Assembly: GCF_037126435.1 (NCBI RefSeq)
Contig: NZ_CP147020.1
Coordinates: 1,843,293-1,907,292, forward strand
Reading direction: 5' to 3'
DNA: 64,000 nucleotides
Source: Bernardetia sp. ABR2-2B
Lineage (GTDB): Bacteria > Bacteroidota > Bacteroidia > Cytophagales > Bernardetiaceae
The translations under genes and the position numbers were made by a program. A model generated the notes under the pieces. That model saw only the letters and a list, made by a program, of their open reading frames with translations, did no database searches and had not been told where the DNA came from. Each line of letters starts with the position of its first letter. Position 1 is the stretch's first letter. Shown here one piece after another: positions 11,240 to 63,633 of the stretch.

Positions 11240-11307
11240 AGGCAGTTATCAGTTGGAAACTATATTTCAATTACTTTAGTATAAAAATGACGTTTTTTAG
11301 TGAGAAA

Positions 11308-11345
11308 AATTCGTAATTCGTAATTTGTAATTCGTAATTCTAAAG
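11308..11345. repeat. Tandem heptamer repeat (GTAATTC)x5 with one variant. A CAGTTA(T/C)CAG element lies just before it at 11255-11270 and in reverse orientation at 11353-11368.
   Basis: Read directly from the sequence: ttcgtaattcgtaatttgtaattcgtaattc. Confidence 0.8.
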
Positions 11346-15783: not shown

Positions 15784-15867
15784 ATCTTAAAACCTTATTC
15801 TGTCACAAGAAATAAAACAGCTCTTGCTTGGCTTTGCTGAGTGAGAGGTTTTATTATATTTGAGTTT

Positions 15868-16113: not shown

Positions 16114-16698
16114 ATGTGTTATTCAGTCTATATCGCAACAAATCAAAAGTTAGAAGAGGGAAGTTTCGTACCCAATGAAACAGATATATATTTTTCTAAA
16201 ATTAGTGATGCAGAAGAAGTTCGTCTACGCTCTAAATTTTCTAAAGAGAATATTTATTATGTAGGTTCGGATACAAATTGCTCTTGTGGGTTAGCTTTTG
16301 ATAGTAGTGATTTTGGAAACCCAAAAGAAGATATCAATAAAAAATCGCCTACAAAATTTATTGAGTTTTTACAGAAAGCAACATTAATAGAAAGTGTACA
16401 ATGCTATTGTTGTTGGGAAGGAGATGAAGTGACTGATATTGAAAATTATAAAGACATAAATATTCAGAAAATTTCATTAGAAAAAAATTATTTCAGCTTC
16501 GAAGAAAATGTACGTATTACTTTTATCAAAACCTATGAACCAAAACTAAGAAATGAAATAGTGAAAATTCTGCAAGAAAATGAACAAGGAAGTCTATTAA
16601 AAGCCATAAAGTTTTTGAGAAACCAAACAAAATCAGGCTTAATGGATGCTAGAGTCTATGTAGAATATCTAGCTATTGATTTGAAAAAATCAGAATAG
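16114..16698 (+). CDS. Hypothetical protein (ORFan) bracketed by R1/R2 repeats.
   Basis: 194-aa ORF with no motif I recognise. It sits between an R1 copy and R2 copies. Confidence 0.4.
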   Translation: MCYSVYIATNQKLEEGSFVPNETDIYFSKISDAEEVRLRSKFSKENIYYVGSDTNCSCGLAFDSSDFGNPKEDINKKSPTKFIEFLQKATLIESVQCYCCWEGDEVTDIENYKDINIQKISLEKNYFSFEENVRITFIKTYEPKLRNEIVKILQENEQGSLLKAIKFLRNQTKSGLMDARVYVEYLAIDLKKSE

Positions 16699-16730: not shown

Positions 16731-16950
16731 TTGTTGGTGTTCCCATTTACAAAAACCCATAAAGCCGTTGTTGTGTCTTTAGTTTCGGTTTGCCGTTACG
16801 CTGACCAACAACAGAAACACGCATGAAACTATGGTAAACATTTTTTATATTTAACTTTTTTGTTTCGATAGTAAGTTCATAAATTGTCCGTGTATGTTTA
16901 TTGTTGGTCATCACAACGGCATTGCCGAAGTTAAAGACCAACAAGAACGC
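16731..16950. repeat. Two R2 repeat copies: 16731-16822 in reverse orientation and a degenerate forward copy at 16880-16950. Both contain the hairpin gttgttggtc-N25-gaccaacaac and the motif ccaacaagaacg.
   Basis: Match to copies at 17496, 32925, 33781 and 33955. Confidence 0.8.
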
Positions 16951-29771: not shown

Positions 29772-30713
29772 ATGAGTCTGAGTGTCAATCATTTATTAGG
29801 AATAAAAGACCTTACCCAAGCTGATATTTTGCATATTTTTGAAATGGCAGAGCAGTTTAAGGAAGTTATTAATCGTCCTATCAAAAAAGTACCTTCTTTA
29901 CGTGATATTACGATTGCTAATGTTTTTTTTGAAAACTCTACTCGTACTCGTATTTCTTTCGAACTCGCTCAAAAACGTCTTTCTGCTGATGTAGTTAATT
30001 TTTCTGCAAGTAATAGTTCAGTTTCAAAAGGAGAAACACTTCTTGATACAGTTAATAATATTTTGGCAATGAAGGTAGATATGATTGTGATGCGTCATTC
30101 TAGTGCAGGTGCGCCTCATTTTTTATCCAAACATATCAATGCAGCTATCGTAAATGCAGGAGACGGAACACACGAACACCCAACACAAGCACTTTTAGAT
30201 ACTTTTTCGATTAGAGAAAAATTAGGTGAAGTAGCAGGAAAAAAAGTGGCTATTATTGGAGATATTTCGCATTCAAGAGTAGCTCTTTCTAATATTTTTG
30301 CACTTCAAAAACTGGGTGCAGAAGTGATGCTTTGTGGAATGCCTACACTAATTCCAAAGTTTATAAATCAATTAGGAGTAAAGGTAAGTTATAATCTCAG
30401 AGAAGCTTTAGAATGGTGTGATGTTGCAAATGTGTTGCGTATTCAGTTAGAAAGGCAAGATGTAAAAAATATTCCTTCGCTGCGTGAATATTCACTTTAT
30501 TATGGAATAAATAAAGAATTATTGGATTCTCTCAATAAAGAAATTGTAATTATGCACCCTGGACCCATTAATAGAGGAGTAGAAATTGATAGTGATGTAG
30601 CCGATTCTGAACACTCAATTATTCTTAATCAAGTAGAAAATGGTGTTGCTATCCGAATGGCTGTGTTGTATCTTTTGGCTGAGAAAATAAAACCGAAATC
30701 AGTTACCAGTTAG
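29772..30713 (+). CDS. pyrB: Aspartate carbamoyltransferase catalytic subunit.
   Basis: 313-aa ORF with the ATCase motifs STRTR, HPTQ (EHPTQALLD) and HPGP (MHPGPINRG). Confidence 0.85.
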   Translation: MSLSVNHLLGIKDLTQADILHIFEMAEQFKEVINRPIKKVPSLRDITIANVFFENSTRTRISFELAQKRLSADVVNFSASNSSVSKGETLLDTVNNILAMKVDMIVMRHSSAGAPHFLSKHINAAIVNAGDGTHEHPTQALLDTFSIREKLGEVAGKKVAIIGDISHSRVALSNIFALQKLGAEVMLCGMPTLIPKFINQLGVKVSYNLREALEWCDVANVLRIQLERQDVKNIPSLREYSLYYGINKELLDSLNKEIVIMHPGPINRGVEIDSDVADSEHSIILNQVENGVAIRMAVLYLLAEKIKPKSVTS

Positions 30714-30734
30714 CAGTAATCAGTTACCAGTTTT
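30698..30734 (+). repeat. CAGTTACCAGT heptamer-like tandem element (aatcagttaccagttagcagtaatcagttaccagtttt) overlapping the pyrB stop codon.
   Basis: Near-identical 38-bp element at 60441-60479 adjacent to the recR start. Confidence 0.75.
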
Positions 30735-31609: not shown

Positions 31610-32701
31610 TTGACGACTGCACTTCGCAAAATAATACATATAGATATGGACGCTTTTTATGCTTCAGTAGAACAGCGAGATAATCCAGAACTAAGAGGAA
31701 AGCCTATTGCAGTAGGTGGAGATGGAAAACGAGGTGTAGTGGCAGCAGCAAGTTATGAAGCACGAAAATACGGTGTTTATTCGGCAATGTCTTCCAAAAT
31801 TGCTTTGCAGAAATGCCCTCATTTGATTTTTGTACGTCCTCGTTTTGAAGAGTACAAAAAGGTTTCTTTACAGATTAGAGCTATCTTTTCAGAATATACA
31901 GATTTGATAGAACCACTTTCTTTAGACGAAGCCTATTTAGATGTAACACAAAATAAAAAACAGTTTCCTTCTGCTACTTTACTTGCGATGCAGATTAAAG
32001 ATGAGATAAAAGCTAAAACTAATCTAACAGCTTCTGCTGGAGTCTCTTTTAATAAGTTTTTAGCCAAAATTGCTTCTGATATTAATAAACCAGATGGAAT
32101 TTTTACGATTATACCTGCTGATGCTTCAAAATTTATTGATGAGCTTCCTATCAAAAAATTTCATGGTATTGGTAAAGTAACTGCAAAAAAAATGCACCAT
32201 TTGGGTATTTATACAGGAAAGGATTTGAAAAAATGGCAAAAGAATGATTTGATAAAAAACTTTGGTAAAGCAGGAAGGTTTTATTTTCATATTGCTCACG
32301 GACAAGATAATCGCCCTGTAAATCCGAATCGTATCAGAAAATCTATTGGTGCAGAACGGACTTTTTCGGAAGATTTATTTGAGGAAACAGAAATGATAGA
32401 ATCTCTTCAAAAAATTGCTCAAAAATTATCTCCACTACTTTTGAATAAAGATGTAAAAGGCAGAACCCTTACTCTCAAAATAAAATATGCAGATTTTAAT
32501 CAAATTACTCGTAGCCAAACTGTTATTCAAGGCTTACAAACTGAAGAGGATTTAGCGAAAATTTATATTCCCTTGCTCAAAAGTATTTTTCCTCTGCAAA
32601 TAGGAGTTCGATTATTGGGTTTACAAGTTTCTAATTTAAGTAATCAATCAAAAGAAGAGGTAAAGCATAAAATAGGTAGGCAATTGACTTTGGACTTTTG
32701 A
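31610..32701 (+). CDS. dinB: DNA polymerase IV (Y-family translesion polymerase).
   Basis: 363-aa ORF: RKIIHIDMDAFYASVEQRDNPELRGKPIAVGG and SLDEAYLDVT. The track start is a TTG. Confidence 0.85.
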   Translation: MTTALRKIIHIDMDAFYASVEQRDNPELRGKPIAVGGDGKRGVVAAASYEARKYGVYSAMSSKIALQKCPHLIFVRPRFEEYKKVSLQIRAIFSEYTDLIEPLSLDEAYLDVTQNKKQFPSATLLAMQIKDEIKAKTNLTASAGVSFNKFLAKIASDINKPDGIFTIIPADASKFIDELPIKKFHGIGKVTAKKMHHLGIYTGKDLKKWQKNDLIKNFGKAGRFYFHIAHGQDNRPVNPNRIRKSIGAERTFSEDLFEETEMIESLQKIAQKLSPLLLNKDVKGRTLTLKIKYADFNQITRSQTVIQGLQTEEDLAKIYIPLLKSIFPLQIGVRLLGLQVSNLSNQSKEEVKHKIGRQLTLDF

Positions 32702-32799
32702 GTATATTTTAGGAAAATTTGTATGTTTGTTGCTAGTCATTGTATTTTCAGAAATATTCCGTAAATAATAGATGTTGGGAATGTTATACTACCCTATGA

Positions 32800-33075
32800 A
32801 AAACACAAAAAAACTACTTGAACTGCAAATCTAAGATTTGCTAAAATGATAGGTAGTAGTCATCGCTGCGCTAAAGACAACGCCCAACATTCGTTTTTTT
32901 ACCTTTTATTTGGAACACTACGCACATCAGGTTTTTTTTTGGTTTTGTGGGAAGTTAGTAGATTTGTGAGGGTATTGTTTGTTGTTGGTCATCGTAACGG
33001 CAAACCGAAACTAAAGACCAACAACGGCTTCTTTATAATGCTTTGGTTTTTTTGGAAGACCAACAAGAACGCAGA
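32800..33075 (+). repeat. Composite R1 (32800-32935) plus R2 (32925-33075) repeat.
   Basis: R1 core gcaaatctaagatttgctaaaatgataggtagtagtcatcgctgcgctaaagacaacgcccaaca followed by the R2 hairpin gttgttggtcatcgtaacggcaaaccgaaactaaagaccaacaac. Confidence 0.8.
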
Positions 33076-33115
33076 TAAAGAATTAAAGCAACATCATAAT
33101 TACGACAATTAACTT

Positions 33116-33778
33116 ATGGACTCTCTAATAAGATATACAGATTTTCAAAACAAATATTCCGACTATAATGCTTGGAAGCCAAGTAATGCTTTTACTATTC
33201 ATAATACTACTAACAATTGTATTGAGCAGCTATATAAATATGAGATTGTTGAACAAGTTTTCAATGGGGTAGGTCATACAAGGGATAGTATTCTTTATGC
33301 TAAAAAATTACATAAATTTCAAAACGGATTAATACAAGAGTTTTCTAAACAAGAACGAAATAACACCTATATATATGTAATTGAACATAAGAAGAAAAAA
33401 TTGTCAAGAATAAGAAGTTATAAAGGTTTAGTAGATAAAAAGAAAATCGCTCCGAGCAACTATTGTCAGAATGAATTTATGTTAGAACATAACGAAACAA
33501 TAATATCTTTTATAACTTCTTTAATAGGAGAAAATGTTGTTCAATTATTAGAATATTTCTTTGATGATTCGACCTGTTTTGTAATAAAGAGTGATGAAGA
33601 TTATTTAAACGTAGATTTCTTAAACTTAGTGTTATCTACTTTAGATTTAACTGGCAACATTGAATTAGATTATTTAAAATTATTATGTCTATTCTGTAAT
33701 AAAAATGATATTATATATCGAATAGGAGGAAATTCAGGAGAAGATTACTGGAGTCTGCAGAAGTTCATAAAAAAGTAG
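33116..33778 (+). CDS. Hypothetical protein (ORFan) bracketed by R1/R2 repeats.
   Basis: 220-aa ORF with no motif I recognise. Confidence 0.35.
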   Translation: MDSLIRYTDFQNKYSDYNAWKPSNAFTIHNTTNNCIEQLYKYEIVEQVFNGVGHTRDSILYAKKLHKFQNGLIQEFSKQERNNTYIYVIEHKKKKLSRIRSYKGLVDKKKIAPSNYCQNEFMLEHNETIISFITSLIGENVVQLLEYFFDDSTCFVIKSDEDYLNVDFLNLVLSTLDLTGNIELDYLKLLCLFCNKNDIIYRIGGNSGEDYWSLQKFIKK

Positions 33779-33780
33779 AT

Positions 33781-34145
33781 ATACACTGTTGTTGGTCATC
33801 GTAACGGCAAACCGAAACTAAAGACCAACAACGGCTTCTTATCTAATGATTTGGACTTTTTGGAAGACCAACAAGAACGTAACAACGGCTTTTTTTACGT
33901 TTTTAGCAAATCGGAACACCAACAAGAACGTAGAATTTGAATAAAAATCTGTTTTTTTTTGATTTGAGTTTTTTGTTTTTTGTGGGAAGTTATTAGGTTT
34001 GTGGGGTGTGTTTGTTGTTGGTCATCGTAACGGCAAGCCGAAACTAAAGACCAACAACGGCTTCTTTCTAATGATTTGGATTTTTTGGAAGACCAACAAG
34101 AACGTAGACAACGCTTAACTACTACTGTTTTGGAACACTACGCTC
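33781..34145 (+). repeat. Two tandem R2 copies (33781-33925 carries three ccaacaagaacg motifs; 33955-34115) plus an R1-type terminal motif (ggaacactacgctcatcagg).
   Basis: Direct sequence match to the other R2 copies. Confidence 0.8.
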
Positions 34146-34673
34146 ATCAGGGGGAGTTACTCTTAAAATATCCCAATAGTCTCCGTTAAATTCATAGATA
34201 GGTAAATGGACGAAGTTGTACAAAGCTTCTCGTAGCTCTTTAGTTTGTTCCTTCCATAGTTTCTCTGACCTGATAATTCCATTTTTAAATTTTTTCTCAT
34301 CTGTAACTTTTTTAGGATGCCAAGCAGAAAGCCAATATCCTTCCACATCCTTTTGTTCTACATCTTCTAATGTTTCTAACGAAGCCTTTGATATTTTACT
34401 TGCGTATTTCTTATAATACAGAAACATATCATCCACTAATAATAAAATAGAATACATGTAAAATATGGAACCCCAACTATTATCTTCTGCTTTGCTCTCT
34501 AAATAACTAATGAGTTGATCCAACTGAGTTTCTATTTCTTTACTACTGATATATGTAGTATAATAGCTAAGTTTTACTAATATTGGATTTTCAAAAGTTA
34601 TAGGTAACTCTTTTTCTTTAGCTTTCTCGTCGAAAGACAATAGAGTTCTTTTAAATAGTCTATGTTCAAACAT
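34122..34673 (-). CDS. Hypothetical protein (ORFan) between the R2 repeats and the IS element.
   Basis: 183-aa ORF with no motif I recognise. Confidence 0.35.
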   Translation of the reverse strand: MFEHRLFKRTLLSFDEKAKEKELPITFENPILVKLSYYTTYISSKEIETQLDQLISYLESKAEDNSWGSIFYMYSILLLVDDMFLYYKKYASKISKASLETLEDVEQKDVEGYWLSAWHPKKVTDEKKFKNGIIRSEKLWKEQTKELREALYNFVHLPIYEFNGDYWDILRVTPPDERSVPKQ

Positions 34674-34788
34674 TGATATTATTGAATTATGATAGCACCT
34701 TTTTTACCGTTAAAATTGTAATTTATATGTTCACAAATGTTGGGCGTTGTCTGCAACTACGACCTATCAGTCCAGCAAGTCTTAGACC

Positions 34789-36224
34789 TTATCCTGTCCC
34801 ATAAACTTTTCAATTTTGGCTATTGTTTTGTATTGATTTTATTTATTTACTATTCTTACCTTCATTTTATGTTATATCAACCTTTGGAACATTGGAGCGA
34901 ACGAGAATTTATGGATTGTGGTGTTGAAGACTTACGAGAAGCGAAAAGTATTTCGAAGATGGCAGATAAATTATTAGCTACTCCAGAAAACTCTTTCAGT
35001 AGTAGCGTAGGTAATAGTCTACGAAAAGCAGCTTGGCGTATTTTTTCAAAGGAAGAAGTAGATATTAGCTACGGACATTATCGTCAATCTTCTCTTCGTT
35101 GTTCCTCTGAATCTATGGTTTTGGTTCACCAGGATACAACAGATTTGAATTTTGGAGGTCATTTGGCTAGTGAAGGTTTAGGTGACTTAGGAGGTAGTAC
35201 TGGCAAGCCTATTCTAGGTCTTTGTGTTCATAGTGCTTTAGTTACTACGGAAGCAGGTATTCCTTTGGGTTTGATTTCACAAAAGATATGGGCGCCTACA
35301 GTGGGCAGTAAAGAAAAAAAAGTAATTCCTCACCTTCCAATAGAAGAAAAAGAAAGTTATCGTTGGTTAGAGGCTCTACAAGATATTAGCCATCGTTTAA
35401 AAGATGTTTCTAAGGTAATTGTAGTTTCTGATAGAGAGAGTGATTTTTATGAATATATTGATGCTACTCGTGGTAGAAATGTGGAGTTGTTATTTAGAGT
35501 GCATCATTTACGTCGTAGAGTATATGCAAATGGAGAGAAGATAGCTTTAGGGCAAGTTAGTTTTTCATCATTATCAGAGATAGATGTTTTTCTACCTAAG
35601 AGCAAAACTAGAGAAGCTAGAAAAGCTCGTCTTACAATAAGCTAGGGAGATATTATTTGCCCACCTTCGCAAAGGAAAAAGGGATCAGAACATCATTTAT
35701 CTCTTATTATAGCTAAAGAAATGCACCCTCCCAAAGATCAAGAGGCAGTAGAATGGTATCTACTAACCACTCAAAAAATAGTTACCCTTCAACAGGCACT
35801 TCTTTGTATAGAACACTACAAAAAACGTTGGACTATTGAGCGTTGGCATTATGTGCTTAAACAGGGTTTACGAATAGAAAAACTACAGTTTGATACATTT
35901 ACTTCACTATCTAATGCTATCAGCTTACTCTCCATTGTAGCTTGGCAACTTTATTTGCTCAAAAAACTGGCAGAAGACTATGAAGATATTTCTGCTGATC
36001 AAGTATTGACAAAGATACAACTAGAGGTGTTAGGAAAACAAAGTCAGAAAAAAATACGCTACCTTCAAGAGGCTTTGATACGCATCGCTGTGTTAGGTGG
36101 ATTTACACCATCTAAAAAACAACCTCTACCTGGCGAAATGACAATATGGAAAGGGTATAAGATGCTTAGTTTAATAGTTCAAGGCTATAAACTGGCTAAC
36201 CCAAAAAAATATGGGACAGGATAA
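34789..36224 (+). mobile_element. IS4-family insertion sequence with perfect 12-bp terminal inverted repeats (TTATCCTGTCCC / GGGACAGGATAA) and a 9-bp direct target duplication GTCTTAGAC (34779-34787 and 36226-36234). It is inserted into the palindromic core of an R1 repeat.
   Basis: TIRs and TSD read directly from the sequence. Flanking halves at 34737-34788 and 36225-36275 together reconstitute an R1 element. Confidence 0.75.
34869..36224 (+). pseudogene. IS4-family transposase interrupted by a single in-frame TAG at 35643-35645. Both halves are in the same reading frame.
   Basis: ORFs 34737..35645 and 35721..36224 are both in frame 0 with no other stop between them. The C-terminal motif YKKRWTIERWHYVLKQ is typical of IS4. 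The likely start is the ATG at 34869, inside the IS. Confidence 0.65.
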
Positions 36225-36483
36225 GGTCTTAGACTTGCAAGTTAAGTAGGTATTTTTGTAATTACTGCTCTGTCTCGCAAGAAATAAAATGGCTATCACT
36301 CGTTTTTAACGAGTGATTTATATGTATTCGGCTTGTACTTGTAGCCATAATTTTTGTATTTTCTTTTCCGAGTTGTTGTTGTTTAGTTTTGATTTACCGT
36401 TACAGTTACCAAAAAAGACGAAAGTACAATCAAATAGTGAATAACTAGAAATTATTTATTTCAATCACTAAACTACCAAAAAA

Positions 36484-36648
36484 ATGTCACAAATCACTCC
36501 CAAACTAGAAGTTGAGGTAATACAGCTTCTCAAACAAAATAAAATTTTAGAAGCTATAAAGTTAATAGTAACAAATACAGAATTAGGTTTGAAAGATTCA
36601 AAAGAATATGTAGATGAATTGAAAGTTAGGCTAAAAAATAGCAAATAG
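36484..36648 (+). CDS. Small protein (54 aa) resembling the ribosomal L7/L12 C-terminal domain.
   Basis: MSQITPKLEVEVIQLLKQNKILEAIKLIVTNTELGLKDSKEYVDELKVRLKNSK. The segment ELGLKDSKEYV resembles the L7/L12 C-terminal domain GLGLKEAKDLV. The ORF is below the 60-aa cutoff, so the track missed it. Confidence 0.35.
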   Translation: MSQITPKLEVEVIQLLKQNKILEAIKLIVTNTELGLKDSKEYVDELKVRLKNSK

Positions 36649-45414: not shown

Positions 45415-45586
45415 ATCAATTATATATCTTCAAATTTATGTGGTCAAGTAATTACAAAAATACTTACTTGACTTGCAAATCTAAGATTTAGCTACGCTGA
45501 CTTAAAAGTTGCTGAAATGATAGGTCGTAGTCATAAACAACGCTTAGCAATTTTTCTCTAGTTTTTTTGAACACTACGTCCATCTG
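45415..45586 (+). repeat. R1 repeat copy (full length, ~150 bp).
   Basis: About 88% identical to the copy at 45950-46106. It contains taattacaaaaatact, the aaatctaagattt palindrome, gataggtcgtagtcat and ggaacactacg. Confidence 0.85.
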
Positions 45587-45663
45587 GGAGGCTTAAAAAC
45601 TAGACAAAAAAAATGTCTGACGCATGACACGCCAAACATTAAACAAATGATAAATTTTATTTT

Positions 45664-45826
45664 AGTAAGCTAGTAGATTGAAGTCCAAATCTAAGTCTTC
45701 GGCATACTCTTCGCCACTTTCGCCTCCGATAATTTTGCTAGAATCTTGAATTTTCATTTTCTCAAATTTCTTAATTTCAACTTTCTCACTTTTTACAGAA
45801 GTAAAAAAACTTTTTAACTTTTTCAT
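45664..45826 (-). CDS. Small ORF (54 aa) with an acidic C-terminus, flanked by direct R1 repeats.
   Basis: MKKLKSFFTSVKSEKVEIKKFEKMKIQDSSKIIGGESGEEYAEDLDLDFNLLAY. Not in the ORF track (below 60 aa). Confidence 0.3.
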
Positions 45827-45949
45827 AAATTCAAATTTTAATTAGTAATAAAAATCAAATATACTCAAAATCAGTCACTTAACAAGTGAAAGATTACTTT
45901 AATATTTTCATGATATTCCTTTTCAAAAGATTTATTTATAATAATATCA

Positions 45950-46106
45950 GTTATATAAACCTTCAAATTTATGTTGTCAAGTAATTACAAAACTACCTAC
46001 TTGACCTGTAAATCTAAGATTAGCTACGCTGACTTAAAAGTTGCTGAAATGATAAATCATAGTCATAGACAACGCTTAACTGATAATTTTTGGGAACACT
46101 AATAGG
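45950..46106 (+). repeat. R1 repeat copy, a direct repeat of 45415-45586.
   Basis: Sequence alignment by eye, about 88% identity. Confidence 0.85.
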
Positions 46107-52191: not shown

Positions 52192-52841
52192 TTATTTTCA
52201 AAAATTATCAAAAAACAAAAAAAACTACTTTCATAATCGTTTTATCTAAGCTAAATTTGTAGATTGTATCATTAATTGTTTAAGCTTTTTAAAACAAGAT
52301 TTTTACTTTAATTAAAATTTTAAAAAAAGTTGTTTAAAAAGTATTTGACAAATACTCAACTGCTTATTCATTTTGATATATTTTTCTCTAAAAAAAAGAG
52401 AAATAATCTTGACCGTACAACTACGATAAATCATTTTTATTTTTTCATAAAATAGGGTTTGCAAACTCTATCTTATGAAAAAGACATTGCATAAATTATC
52501 TTCATAGATTTTATCAAAAAATAAAAATGACTTTTTCCATATATAGCAAAATAAAACAATTCTGAATTTTAATCTAATCAATTGATTTACAGAAACTTAT
52601 ACATAAAATTAATTTAAAGTTTTTACTATACATAAAAATAAAAACTAATTTTGAGCATTTTAAACCCTAGTGTTTTCAAAATCCTTAGGGTTTCGAACCA
52701 TTTTGCGTGTGTAACAAAGATTATTTATTCTTTTTAGAGAAATGAATCTGTTTTTTTGTGATTTTTTTATAAAAAAACAGGTTAGAAGCGAATAAATGTA
52801 AATTATTAATTATGAGTGGTTTTAAATTCTAATTTAAAACA

Positions 52842-52900
52842 TTCGTAATTCGTAATTGAAAATTAGCTATGCTGATTATTTCATAATTCGTAATTATTCC
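52842..52900. repeat. Heptamer tandem motif attcgtaattcgtaattga (52842-52860) plus a partial copy taattcgtaatt (52884-52895), upstream of rny.
   Basis: The same 19-mer occurs at 58201-58219 and 63615-63633. Confidence 0.8.
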
Positions 52901-52931
52901 TTATTCATTCAATCTAAAGAAAATATATATA

Positions 52932-54533: not shown

Positions 54534-54618
54534 ATTTAGAATTCAGAGGTCAGAGTTTAGAATTAAATACAAATTATGGTAGGTCAAAGGCTTACATTTG
54601 ATTATTTAACAATAAAAT

Positions 54619-58005: not shown

Positions 58006-58196
58006 AGCTAGTCAGATTCTTAGGTTTTAAGAAAAATCAAAAACTATTGCTAATCGTATAACGTTTGCAAAAGTATAAGACCTTTTTTATAAATTTATTG
58101 AATAGAATCAAGCAAAACAAAGTAGGTCAATCTCCTATTCCAAATTATTGGAATTGTAATTTTATTGATATAAATAAATGTATCATAATCGTAACT

Positions 58197-58219
58197 TTTA
58201 ATTCGTAATTCGTAATTGA
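58197..58219 (+). repeat. Heptamer motif tttaattcgtaattcgtaattga, 9 bp upstream of the pspA-like ATG.
   Basis: Identical 23-mer at 63611-63633. Confidence 0.8.
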
Positions 58220-60440: not shown

Positions 60441-60479
60441 TTAATCAGTTACCAGTAAATAGTTACCAGTAATCAGTTT
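60441..60479 (+). repeat. CAGTTACCAGT element (taatcagttaccagtaaatagttaccagtaatcagtttt) abutting the recR start codon.
   Basis: Near-identical to 30698-30734. Confidence 0.75.
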
Positions 60480-60661
60480 TGACTAATTTGGTAGCTATAA
60501 AATTAAATTATTTAAGGACAAATAAGGCTTACAAAAATACAAAAAAAAAGATAGAGTTGAAATCTATCTGTAGCCAATCATTTAGAATCTAAAAAGTAGA
60601 TTGCGAAAAGCCTCCTACATTTACTTGTAAGAGGCATATCAAAAATCTCTAAAAGTAGTTA

Positions 60662-63479: not shown

Positions 63480-63610
63480 AATTATATTTTATTTTGATTC
63501 TGTATATTGATAAATATTCTATTTATAAATAATGTTTGAGATAGAATAAAGTTTAAGCTATTTTTGTGAGAGTTCTATAAAATGGAATATATTATTTCGT
63601 GATTTTTAAT

Positions 63611-63633
63611 TTTTAATTCGTAATTCGTAATTG
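63611..63633 (+). repeat. Heptamer motif tttaattcgtaattcgtaattga ending 3 bp before the GT2 start codon.
   Basis: Identical to 58197-58219. Confidence 0.8.

Follow-up and report, generated by a model that had tools for sequence, protein, structure and literature searches.

REP hairpins linked to a subclass 2.6 RAYT transposase probably account for an intergenic repeat cluster downstream of dinB in Bernardetia sp. ABR2-2B

The window analyzed here is a 64-kb stretch of Bernardetia sp. ABR2-2B (Cytophagales), in which two families of intergenic repeats, R1 and R2, form a conspicuous cluster among small open reading frames (ORFs) downstream of dinB. Profiling with nhmmer finds eight R1 copies and seven R2 hairpins in this window, confined to three intergenic loci at 15.8-17.6, 32.7-36.4 and 45.4-46.8 kb, and the second of these is our main subject. 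A 39-nt R2 core has three matches with zero or one mismatch from 32984 to 34055 where none is expected from 100 shuffles, and the R2 tail motif and both R1 motifs are likewise far above chance. We conclude that this cluster almost certainly derives from, and was spread by, a small gene of the same genome that encodes a transposase associated with repetitive extragenic palindromes (REPs), a REP-associated tyrosine transposase or RAYT, which makes it a known kind of selfish or domesticated DNA.

The original prediction described a 1.3-kb cluster with one R1 copy and at least three R2 copies, and both are found: a single full R1 copy occupies 32807-32931 (+ strand; E = 4e-31), and three R2 hairpins, all in the same orientation, have their 5' arms at 32981, 33788 and 34014. 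A possible decayed R2 5' half (GTATGTTTGTTGCTAGTCATTGTA, 32720-32745, +), seen by eye after the dinB stop codon and missed by nhmmer, is listed with low confidence. The R1 copy comprises a palindrome (GCAAATCTAAGATTTGC, 32825-32841), a hairpin of GGTAGTAGTC and GACAACGCC (32852-32884) that folds weakly here, and a distal arm or tail (TTGGAACACTACGCACATCAGG, 32910-32931). It is followed by a segment that we call box A (32932-32975, +), collinear with RAYT 3' flanks at four loci of related genomes (L045, L031, L029 and L005) and read here as the subterminal right end of a REPtron; within it, TAGATTTG (32959-32966) fits the Bacteroidetes -7 consensus TAnnTTTG and is a putative promoter element only. 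R2 copy 1 (32976-33078, +) has hairpin arms at 32981-32990 and 33016-33025, beyond which a T-rich spacer leads to the distal arm (GACCAACAAGAACGCAG, 33058-33074). A 220-aa ORF (33116-33778, +) separates it from R2 copy 2 (33786-33934, +; arms 33788-33797 and 33823-33832), which lacks box A. Copy 2 had been credited with three identical tandem motifs; what it holds is two successive spacer and distal-arm units, the second at 33881-33934 (E = 1e-4), with two exact occurrences of CCAACAAGAACG (33867 and 33918) and a related CCAACAACGGC at 33826. Next come a RAYT remnant (33932-33968, +), in which the final four codons and the stop codon at 33942-33944 (AGAATTTGAATAA) are followed by the 3' flank AAATCTGTTTTTTTTTGATTTGAG, and then box A with R2 copy 3 (33969-34104, +; arms 34014-34023 and 34049-34058, distal arm 34091-34104). 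The G/T-rich tract said to precede every R2 is present before copies 1 and 3 but missing from copy 2, which abuts the stop codon of the 220-aa ORF.

The repeats are real, and the cluster extends past 34145. An R1 3' fragment (AGACAACGCTTAAC...GGAACACTACGCTCATCAGGGGG, 34105-34152, +; E = 3e-6) is joined to the end of copy 3, and the same R2-R1 junction as at 34104/34105 recurs in L033. A 183-aa ORF (34122-34673, - strand; its database homologue begins at M12) is followed, in line with the predicted neighborhood, by an IS4/Tn5-like insertion sequence (IS; 34788-36225, +) with a 16-bp terminal inverted repeat (TIR; CTTATCCTGTCCCATA), a 9-bp target-site duplication (TSD; GTCTTAGAC, 34779-34787 and 36226-36234) and the Pfam domains Tnp_DNA_bind, DDE_Tnp_1 and Dimer_Tnp_Tn5. 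This IS splits an R1 copy on the - strand at the center of its palindrome into a right part (34732-34787; E = 1e-11) and a left part (36226-36266) that carries the rest of the palindrome and upstream AGTAATTACAAAAATAC... and forms inverted repeats with R1 at 45447 and 45980. The insertion point lies exactly mid-palindrome. The IS is probably inactive, since its transposase is divided between two ORFs (302 and 167 aa), and it is an interloper outside the REP system. The last elements of the cluster are a hairpin of a third family, R4 (GCTA-TCACTCG-TTTTTAA-CGAGTGA; 36275-36316, +, hairpin 36290-36316), of a type published as the REP of subclass 2.6 RAYTs in Flexibacter (Bernardetia) litoralis (Quentin et al. 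2018), and a decayed R2 hairpin on the - strand (36372-36420; E = 2.7e-6).

We compared 58 R2 copies from about six genomes (alignment A1) and find that they fit an extended imperfect hairpin of 19 pairs, with an outer stem GTTGTTGGTC/GACCAACAAC and, inside the 25-nt outer loop, an inner helix of GT/AC and CGG(C)/(G)CCG closed by a variable loop of 2-4 nt. With this structure 89.9% of the cells are paired, compared to 20-43% when the partner is slid; nine pairs have changed on both sides, in 37 cells, and none of 500 shuffles reaches any of the observed measures. Among the compensatory changes, GT..AC most clearly becomes AC..GT, in 11 copies, and G-C becomes U-A at the stem foot in six; three copies have G-C for C-G in the innermost pair of the outer stem, and one has A-U for G-C within the inner helix. 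RNAalifold predicts both helices independently, and single-sequence DNA folds of the window copies recover the outer and inner helices with z-scores of -2.8 to -4.6. The 10-bp stem proposed from the sequence thus folds and covaries, but its supposedly open loop contains a covarying helix of its own; the suggestion of selection on structure is borne out, and we find it supported for both helices.

Several features surround this hairpin. Long R2 copies continue into a T-rich spacer and then a second, distal 3' arm (CACCAACAAGAACGCAG or CACCAACAAAGGCGAAG), and in short copies the hairpin is joined straight to the distal arm. About 40 nt upstream of the hairpin are also conserved, and are of two types, box A and box B. 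The foot of the stem is GCCG (GGC on the R2(+) strand), and the canonical GT[AG]G foot is not present. An attenuator in which the 5' arm pairs alternately with the proximal and distal 3' arms was considered and rejected, as the distal arm lies downstream of the T-run and the short forms are without it.

R2 is strictly extragenic in the sequence examined: none of 68 R2 midpoints falls inside an ORF of at least 150 aa, though such ORFs cover 66% of that sequence. Many copies are single and lie between ordinary large genes, while 17 head-to-head doublets have their loop cores 118-135 nt apart, most of them pairing a GT..AC copy with an AC..GT copy. A pattern built from the R2 loop only recovers copies in Bernardetia sp. 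OM2101, in a 'Flexibacter' metagenome-assembled genome (MAG) and in several uncultured Cytophagales MAGs, and with the strict loop pattern two MAGs yield roughly 15 to 17 copies each.

The gene to which these hairpins belong is suggested by the related loci. A 182-aa ORF lies between R2 copies in L029 and L031, and contains the motifs PNHIHLL (HUH) and DYIHNNPV (Tyr). These fit TnpA-REP subclass 2.6, equivalent to Bertels group 5, a mostly Bacteroidetes group of about 179 aa with the motifs NH[LIV]H, WQ and YIH[QN]NP (Quentin et al. 2018, PMC6006769). Against the NCBIfam profile REP_Tyr_transpos (NF047646) the protein reaches 74.7 bits (E = 7e-21; positions 8-146 of the 146 in the profile), compared with 16 bits against IS200; its sole PDB match is E. 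coli TnpA-REP (4ER8, E = 0.006), and its homologues are named RayT by JGI. From its motifs and profile scores we assign it as a RAYT of the HUH/Y1 type, subclass 2.6, distinct from IS200 TnpA. The ABR2-2B genome encodes a RAYT, P0015 (WP_338763585.1), that is 88% identical to the 182-aa protein, and Table S1 of PMC6006769 assigns subclass 2.6 to AFM02970.1 of F. litoralis, a protein sharing a 90% cluster with P0015.

R2 flanks this gene closely in three related genomes. In L029, the RAYT start and stop are each 50-75 nt away from R2; in L031, R2 copies in direct orientation stand on both sides; in L045 (B. litoralis), box A and R2 come immediately after the RAYT stop codon; and in L005, R2 sits beside a truncated RAYT remnant. 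Inverted flanking by R2-like hairpins is seen in L029, L045 and L046, the last from Bernardetia sp. MNP-M8, with a RAYT 59% identical and a related hairpin, TTGTCGGTG...CACCGACAA. Metagenomes scanned with P0015 gave 80 loci whose RAYTs are 47-60% identical, 56 of them with at least 200 nt on both sides, and in 39 of these 56 a TTGTTGGTG-loop-CACCAACAA hairpin occurs upstream of the gene and, inverted, downstream of it (two or fewer mismatches per arm). Covarying arms, GTCAGGTG/CACCTGAC among them, are present at most of the remaining loci. Many relatives of this RAYT share TTGTTGGTG/CACCAACAA as their common flanking hairpin.

Traces of the gene are also found in the cluster itself. In alignment A2, window positions 33932-33968 are collinear with the last four RAYT codons, the stop and the 3' flank, both in the intact genes of L045 and L031 and in the truncated one of L005, and R2 copy 3 is on this alignment best described as a detached right end of a REPtron. 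The origin of doublets is shown by a mini-REPtron in the sister genome MNP-M8 (L046 2681-2854), directly upstream of a complete one, in which the left hairpin and the first 58 nt of the ORF are joined to the last 14 nt and the right hairpin. This mini-element retains both ends of the RAYT ORF, and the head-to-head R2 doublets look like internally deleted REPtrons. The gene calls of the L046 record place a 65-aa ORF over the mini-REPtron.

R2 is itself a site of insertion. At three loci of one MAG (L005 4878/6174, L026 ~1965 and L031 ~5620), an IS110-family element with a 334-aa DEDD transposase sits within the R2 3' arm at the identical position, GACCAAC|CTTTATATTAGC, and in L005 the rest of R2 picks up precisely after the ~1.3-kb element. 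By analogy with IS621 and IS1397 in E. coli, we take this insertion to be REP-targeted.

R1 follows the same plan as R2: after a 5' arm and a loop that ends in CTAAA and resembles the MNP-M8 hairpin loop come the proximal 3' arm, a T-rich spacer with TTGGAA at its end, and the distal arm. Covariation is seen both in its short hairpin (CGTAGTC/GACTACG to CTTAGTT/AACTAAG, with a foot change of G..C to A..T) and in its upstream palindrome (CAAATCT/AGATTTG to CAAGTCT/AGACTTG); the window copies fold weakly. Head-to-head R1 pairs are present in L006, L008, L014 and L034. By analogy with R2, R1 may be regarded as a second REP-like family. Two R1 copies of the third locus (45421-46101) form a distinct subfamily, because in them a 30-nt insertion (TAGCTACGCTGACTTAAAAGTTGCTGAAA) parts the palindrome from the GATAGG arm and the CGCTGCGCTAA loop is missing. 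An integron attC site was considered for R1, whose GCCCAAC/GTTGGGC resembles a core site, and rejected, as the paired R''/R' geometry and an integrase are both missing. The R4 family (GCTN-TCRCTYG...-loop-...CRAGTGA) adjoins R1 copies at 15820-15845 and at 36290-36316, and an R4-type hairpin was found in none of the 80 metagenomic RAYT loci.

We consider it very likely that R2, and R1 by analogy, are REPs of a REPtron tied to RAYT subclass 2.6, copied from the hairpin-bearing ends of the RAYT gene. By analogy with E. coli TnpA-REP and IS200/IS605, R2 would fold as an extended imperfect hairpin when its DNA becomes single-stranded, for example on the lagging-strand template, to give, in the published orientation, GCCG-TTGTTGGTC-[25-nt loop with inner helix]-GACCAACAA. 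The RAYT, encoded at a separate site on the ABR2-2B chromosome and acting in trans, would bind the folded hairpin and cut and rejoin the single strand near it, such that single hairpins and head-to-head doublets could be copied or moved into intergenic DNA, with no TSD expected. Copies would then build up and decay where insertion is tolerated. Given its resemblance to a promoter, box A might be an outward-facing one, and it could just as well be where the enzyme recognizes or cleaves the DNA. Of the options in the original prediction, a mobile repeat is thus the best fit, as a non-autonomous element but not as an ordinary miniature inverted-repeat transposable element (MITE) with the TIRs and TSDs of a DDE-type IS; and a recombination site is apt in the sense of a single-strand substrate, R2 being the hairpin that flanks a RAYT gene.

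A number of points weigh against this assignment. R2 is seen to flank the RAYT gene in relatives, mobility and the exact ends of the element are presumed, and no empty-site pair was recovered. The flanking R2 pair of L031 is direct, not inverted, and no RAYT gene flanked by R1 was found. The score of 74.7 bits lies just below the curated cut-off of 80 for NF047646, and the Pfam Y1_Tnp match is marginal. R2 lacks the canonical GT[AG]G foot, a known exception for subclass 2.6, and its copy numbers under the strict pattern are modest. Finally, the table of Quentin et al. (2018) gives R4, not R2, for the subclass 2.6 RAYTs of F. litoralis; the hairpin published for that species may not be the one closest to the gene.

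Other explanations were weighed against the same evidence. R2 copies might be small-RNA genes or cis-regulatory RNA leaders, in which box A is the promoter and the hairpin a 5' stabilizer or terminator that serves or insulates small neighboring genes. The Bacteroidetes promoter consensus is TTG...TAnnTTTG, and in box A an invariant TAG(A/G)TTTG precedes the hairpin by ~10 nt and is itself preceded, 17 nt before it, by a TTG; GGCTTTTT comes straight after the stem in ~17 of the 58 copies, in an alignment read by eye; the R2(+) strand has ~18 G-U pairs to ~6 A-C mismatches; and copy 1 and the copy at 16895 sit 20-40 nt upstream of co-oriented ORFs. R2 is nonetheless found upstream of, downstream of and convergent with its neighbor genes by no consistent rule, and the T-runs are poor in the window copies. 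Box A belongs to the element end, because it lies downstream of the RAYT stop codon, and the covariation is all Watson-Crick, so that single-stranded DNA fits it equally well. A search of Rfam, one of the checks proposed with the original prediction, matched no family to R2: the window has no match at the gathering score, a search at E<=1 likewise gives no real match, and 32650-34250 returns only chance miRNA matches at 20-24 bits against cut-offs of 90-97. We regard an RNA role of this kind as unlikely. CRISPR, retron and omega-RNA systems were also considered and set aside, as the associated protein is absent and the repeat architecture is wrong.

A cassette system, integron-like or rAID-like, in which a tyrosine recombinase shuffles small orphan immunity-type genes between R1/R2 recombination sites, is very unlikely, even though L028 has three near-identical doublets, each followed by a different ORF, one of them a SUKH-1 immunity protein. 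Ankyrin proteins, RHS-core fragments and PIN toxin-antitoxin pairs among the other neighbors would suit such a system, as would a homologue of the 220-aa ORF that comes after a Tox-HNH-EHHH fragment and the repetitive intergenic sequences of Bacteroidales rAID-1 clusters (Ross et al. 2019). Yet no recombinase gene occurs at the three window loci and none recurs in 30 related loci by all-against-all ORF clustering, many R2 copies are solitary between large genes, the ORFs face both ways and do not form a one-way array, the 220-aa family is found in other genera where R1/R2 is absent, and a RAYT gene flanked by the repeats already accounts for them. Ordinary MITEs of a DDE-type IS, with TIRs and TSDs, are more improbable still. 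The outer arms of long R2 copies are inverted (TTCTGTTGTTGGT/ACCAACAAGAACG), R1 has GATnGnnCGTAGT ends, and IS elements are present at the locus; but the only IS of the window interrupts an R1 and has a TIR (CTTATCCTGTCCCATA) unrelated to the ends of R1/R2, the IS110-family elements of relatives insert into R2 and do not share its ends, no TSD or direct repeats are evident at doublet ends, and the elements flank a Y1 transposase, of a family that leaves no TSD.

Both ORFs between the repeats had been called orphans, and neither is: the 220-aa protein has 12 homologues and forms a small conserved Cytophagales family, and the 183-aa protein has 18 homologue clusters and forms a small all-helical family. 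The 220-aa protein, like DinB, is 100% identical to a protein of Bernardetia sp. ABR2-2B. Pfam and NCBIfam searches give no match for either ORF product, and a tRNA scan found none. Homologues of the 220-aa protein in other genera have no R1/R2 nearby, which argues against a mobile cassette made of ORF and repeats. At L043 4796-5699, a 232-aa homologue overlaps the end of a 71-aa Tox-HNH-EHHH fragment and stands near Imm33-like and DUF6896 genes; on account of this gene neighborhood there are hints that the 220-aa family may be an immunity protein.

The host site is most likely a variable island downstream of dinB, populated by small genes, in which insertions are tolerated. Two relatives have no repeats downstream of dinB and a third has R2 with different small ORFs; conserved synteny there was not found in these three relatives, and no empty site can be defined. 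The neighbors of R1/R2 in relatives include SUKH-1, ankyrin, RHS-core and PIN toxin-antitoxin genes, which indicates that the repeats accumulate in variable islands rich in conflict-system genes. Co-option of REPtron ends by the host is conceivable but doubtful: box A and R2 would serve as a portable outward promoter with a 5' hairpin, and R1/R2 doublets as junctions for the gain, loss and individual expression of small orphan immunity-type genes. If true, Cytophagales would possess a counterpart to integron or rAID cassette arrays that is driven by a RAYT.

Some further observations concern the window at large. A 54-aa ORF at 36484-36648 has a weak match to the ribosomal L7/L12 C-terminal domain (Pfam E = 8e-4), the C-terminus of a 194-aa ORF at the first locus (16114-16698) looks similar to it by eye, and both ORFs adjoin repeat clusters. 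At 54579-54602, GTAGGTCAAAGGCTTACATTTGAT has three mismatches to the published GTAG-type REP of the F. litoralis subclass 2.4 RAYT AFM03573, and because of this resemblance several REP/RAYT systems probably coexist in the ABR2-2B genome. Other intergenic repeats, short, AT-rich and tandem-like, belong to the types TTCGTAATTCGTAATT and AATCAGTTACCAG; unrelated to R1/R2, they are found at 11305-11341, 52837-52910, 58183-58219 and 63591-63627, and also at 30697-30734 and 60443-60480.

The cluster is thereby explained by a REP/RAYT system, well studied in Proteobacteria and only sketched for Bacteroidetes, and such repeats should not be annotated as small RNAs, CRISPR-like elements or integron sites. 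Among known systems, the rAID-1 clusters of Bacteroidales (Ross et al. 2019) share the small immunity-type genes and repetitive intergenic spacers, but here there is no XerD-like recombinase and no single large array, and the repeats also occur singly between housekeeping genes. IS200/IS605 elements and their palindrome-associated miniature derivatives resemble the R2 system in using an HUH enzyme of the Y1 type, in bearing subterminal hairpins at either end, in their internal-deletion derivatives and in the expected lack of a TSD, but the protein scores as a RAYT and not as IS200, and the gene is low-copy while the hairpins are many. The REP and bacterial interspersed mosaic element (BIME) sequences of E. 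coli with TnpA-REP (RayT, 4ER8) are likewise extragenic imperfect palindromes flanking a single small HUH/Y1 gene, cluster in alternating orientation as two hairpin subtypes (here GT..AC and AC..GT), and are targets for IS110-family elements; R2 differs in its longer hairpin and missing GTAG guide tetranucleotide, and the proteins are weakly similar. The REPINs of P. fluorescens (Bertels and Rainey 2011) are inverted REP doublets presumed to be the mobile unit, non-autonomous and RAYT-dependent; the R2 doublets would be comparable, but their hairpins are separated by ~100 nt of REPtron-derived spacer with RAYT stop-codon remnants. The 17 doublets stand alongside many singletons, and the three R2 copies of our cluster are co-oriented. 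Bertels et al. (2017) note that the 16-mers found with group 5 RAYTs reach the same frequency as those flanking insertion sequences, and this group had not been tied to REPINs; the deletion derivatives that retain pieces of the RAYT ORF show how doublets arise.

The closest counterpart is the subclass 2.6 REPtron of Runella slithyformis. On the flanks of subclass 2.6 genes 'atypical secondary structures' were described, which lack GT[AG]G and have further copies in the genome, and the Runella REP is given as GCCG-GTTGTTGGTG-TTAT-CACCAACAAC (PMC6006769, Table S1). Its stem and foot are those of R2 and its loop is short, so that a hairpin of the R2 type has already been published. The two systems share a RAYT of ~180 aa with NHIH and YIHNNP, a hairpin of GCCG and TTGTTGGT/ACCAACAA without GT[AG]G, the same polarity relative to the gene, and copies scattered in the genome. 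They differ in that many Bernardetia copies have a duplicated distal 3' arm and ~40 nt of subterminal box A or B, and in that the 4-nt loop of Runella is replaced in Bernardetia by 25 nt; what is new in the Bernardetia subclass 2.6 hairpin is this long loop with its own conserved inner helix.

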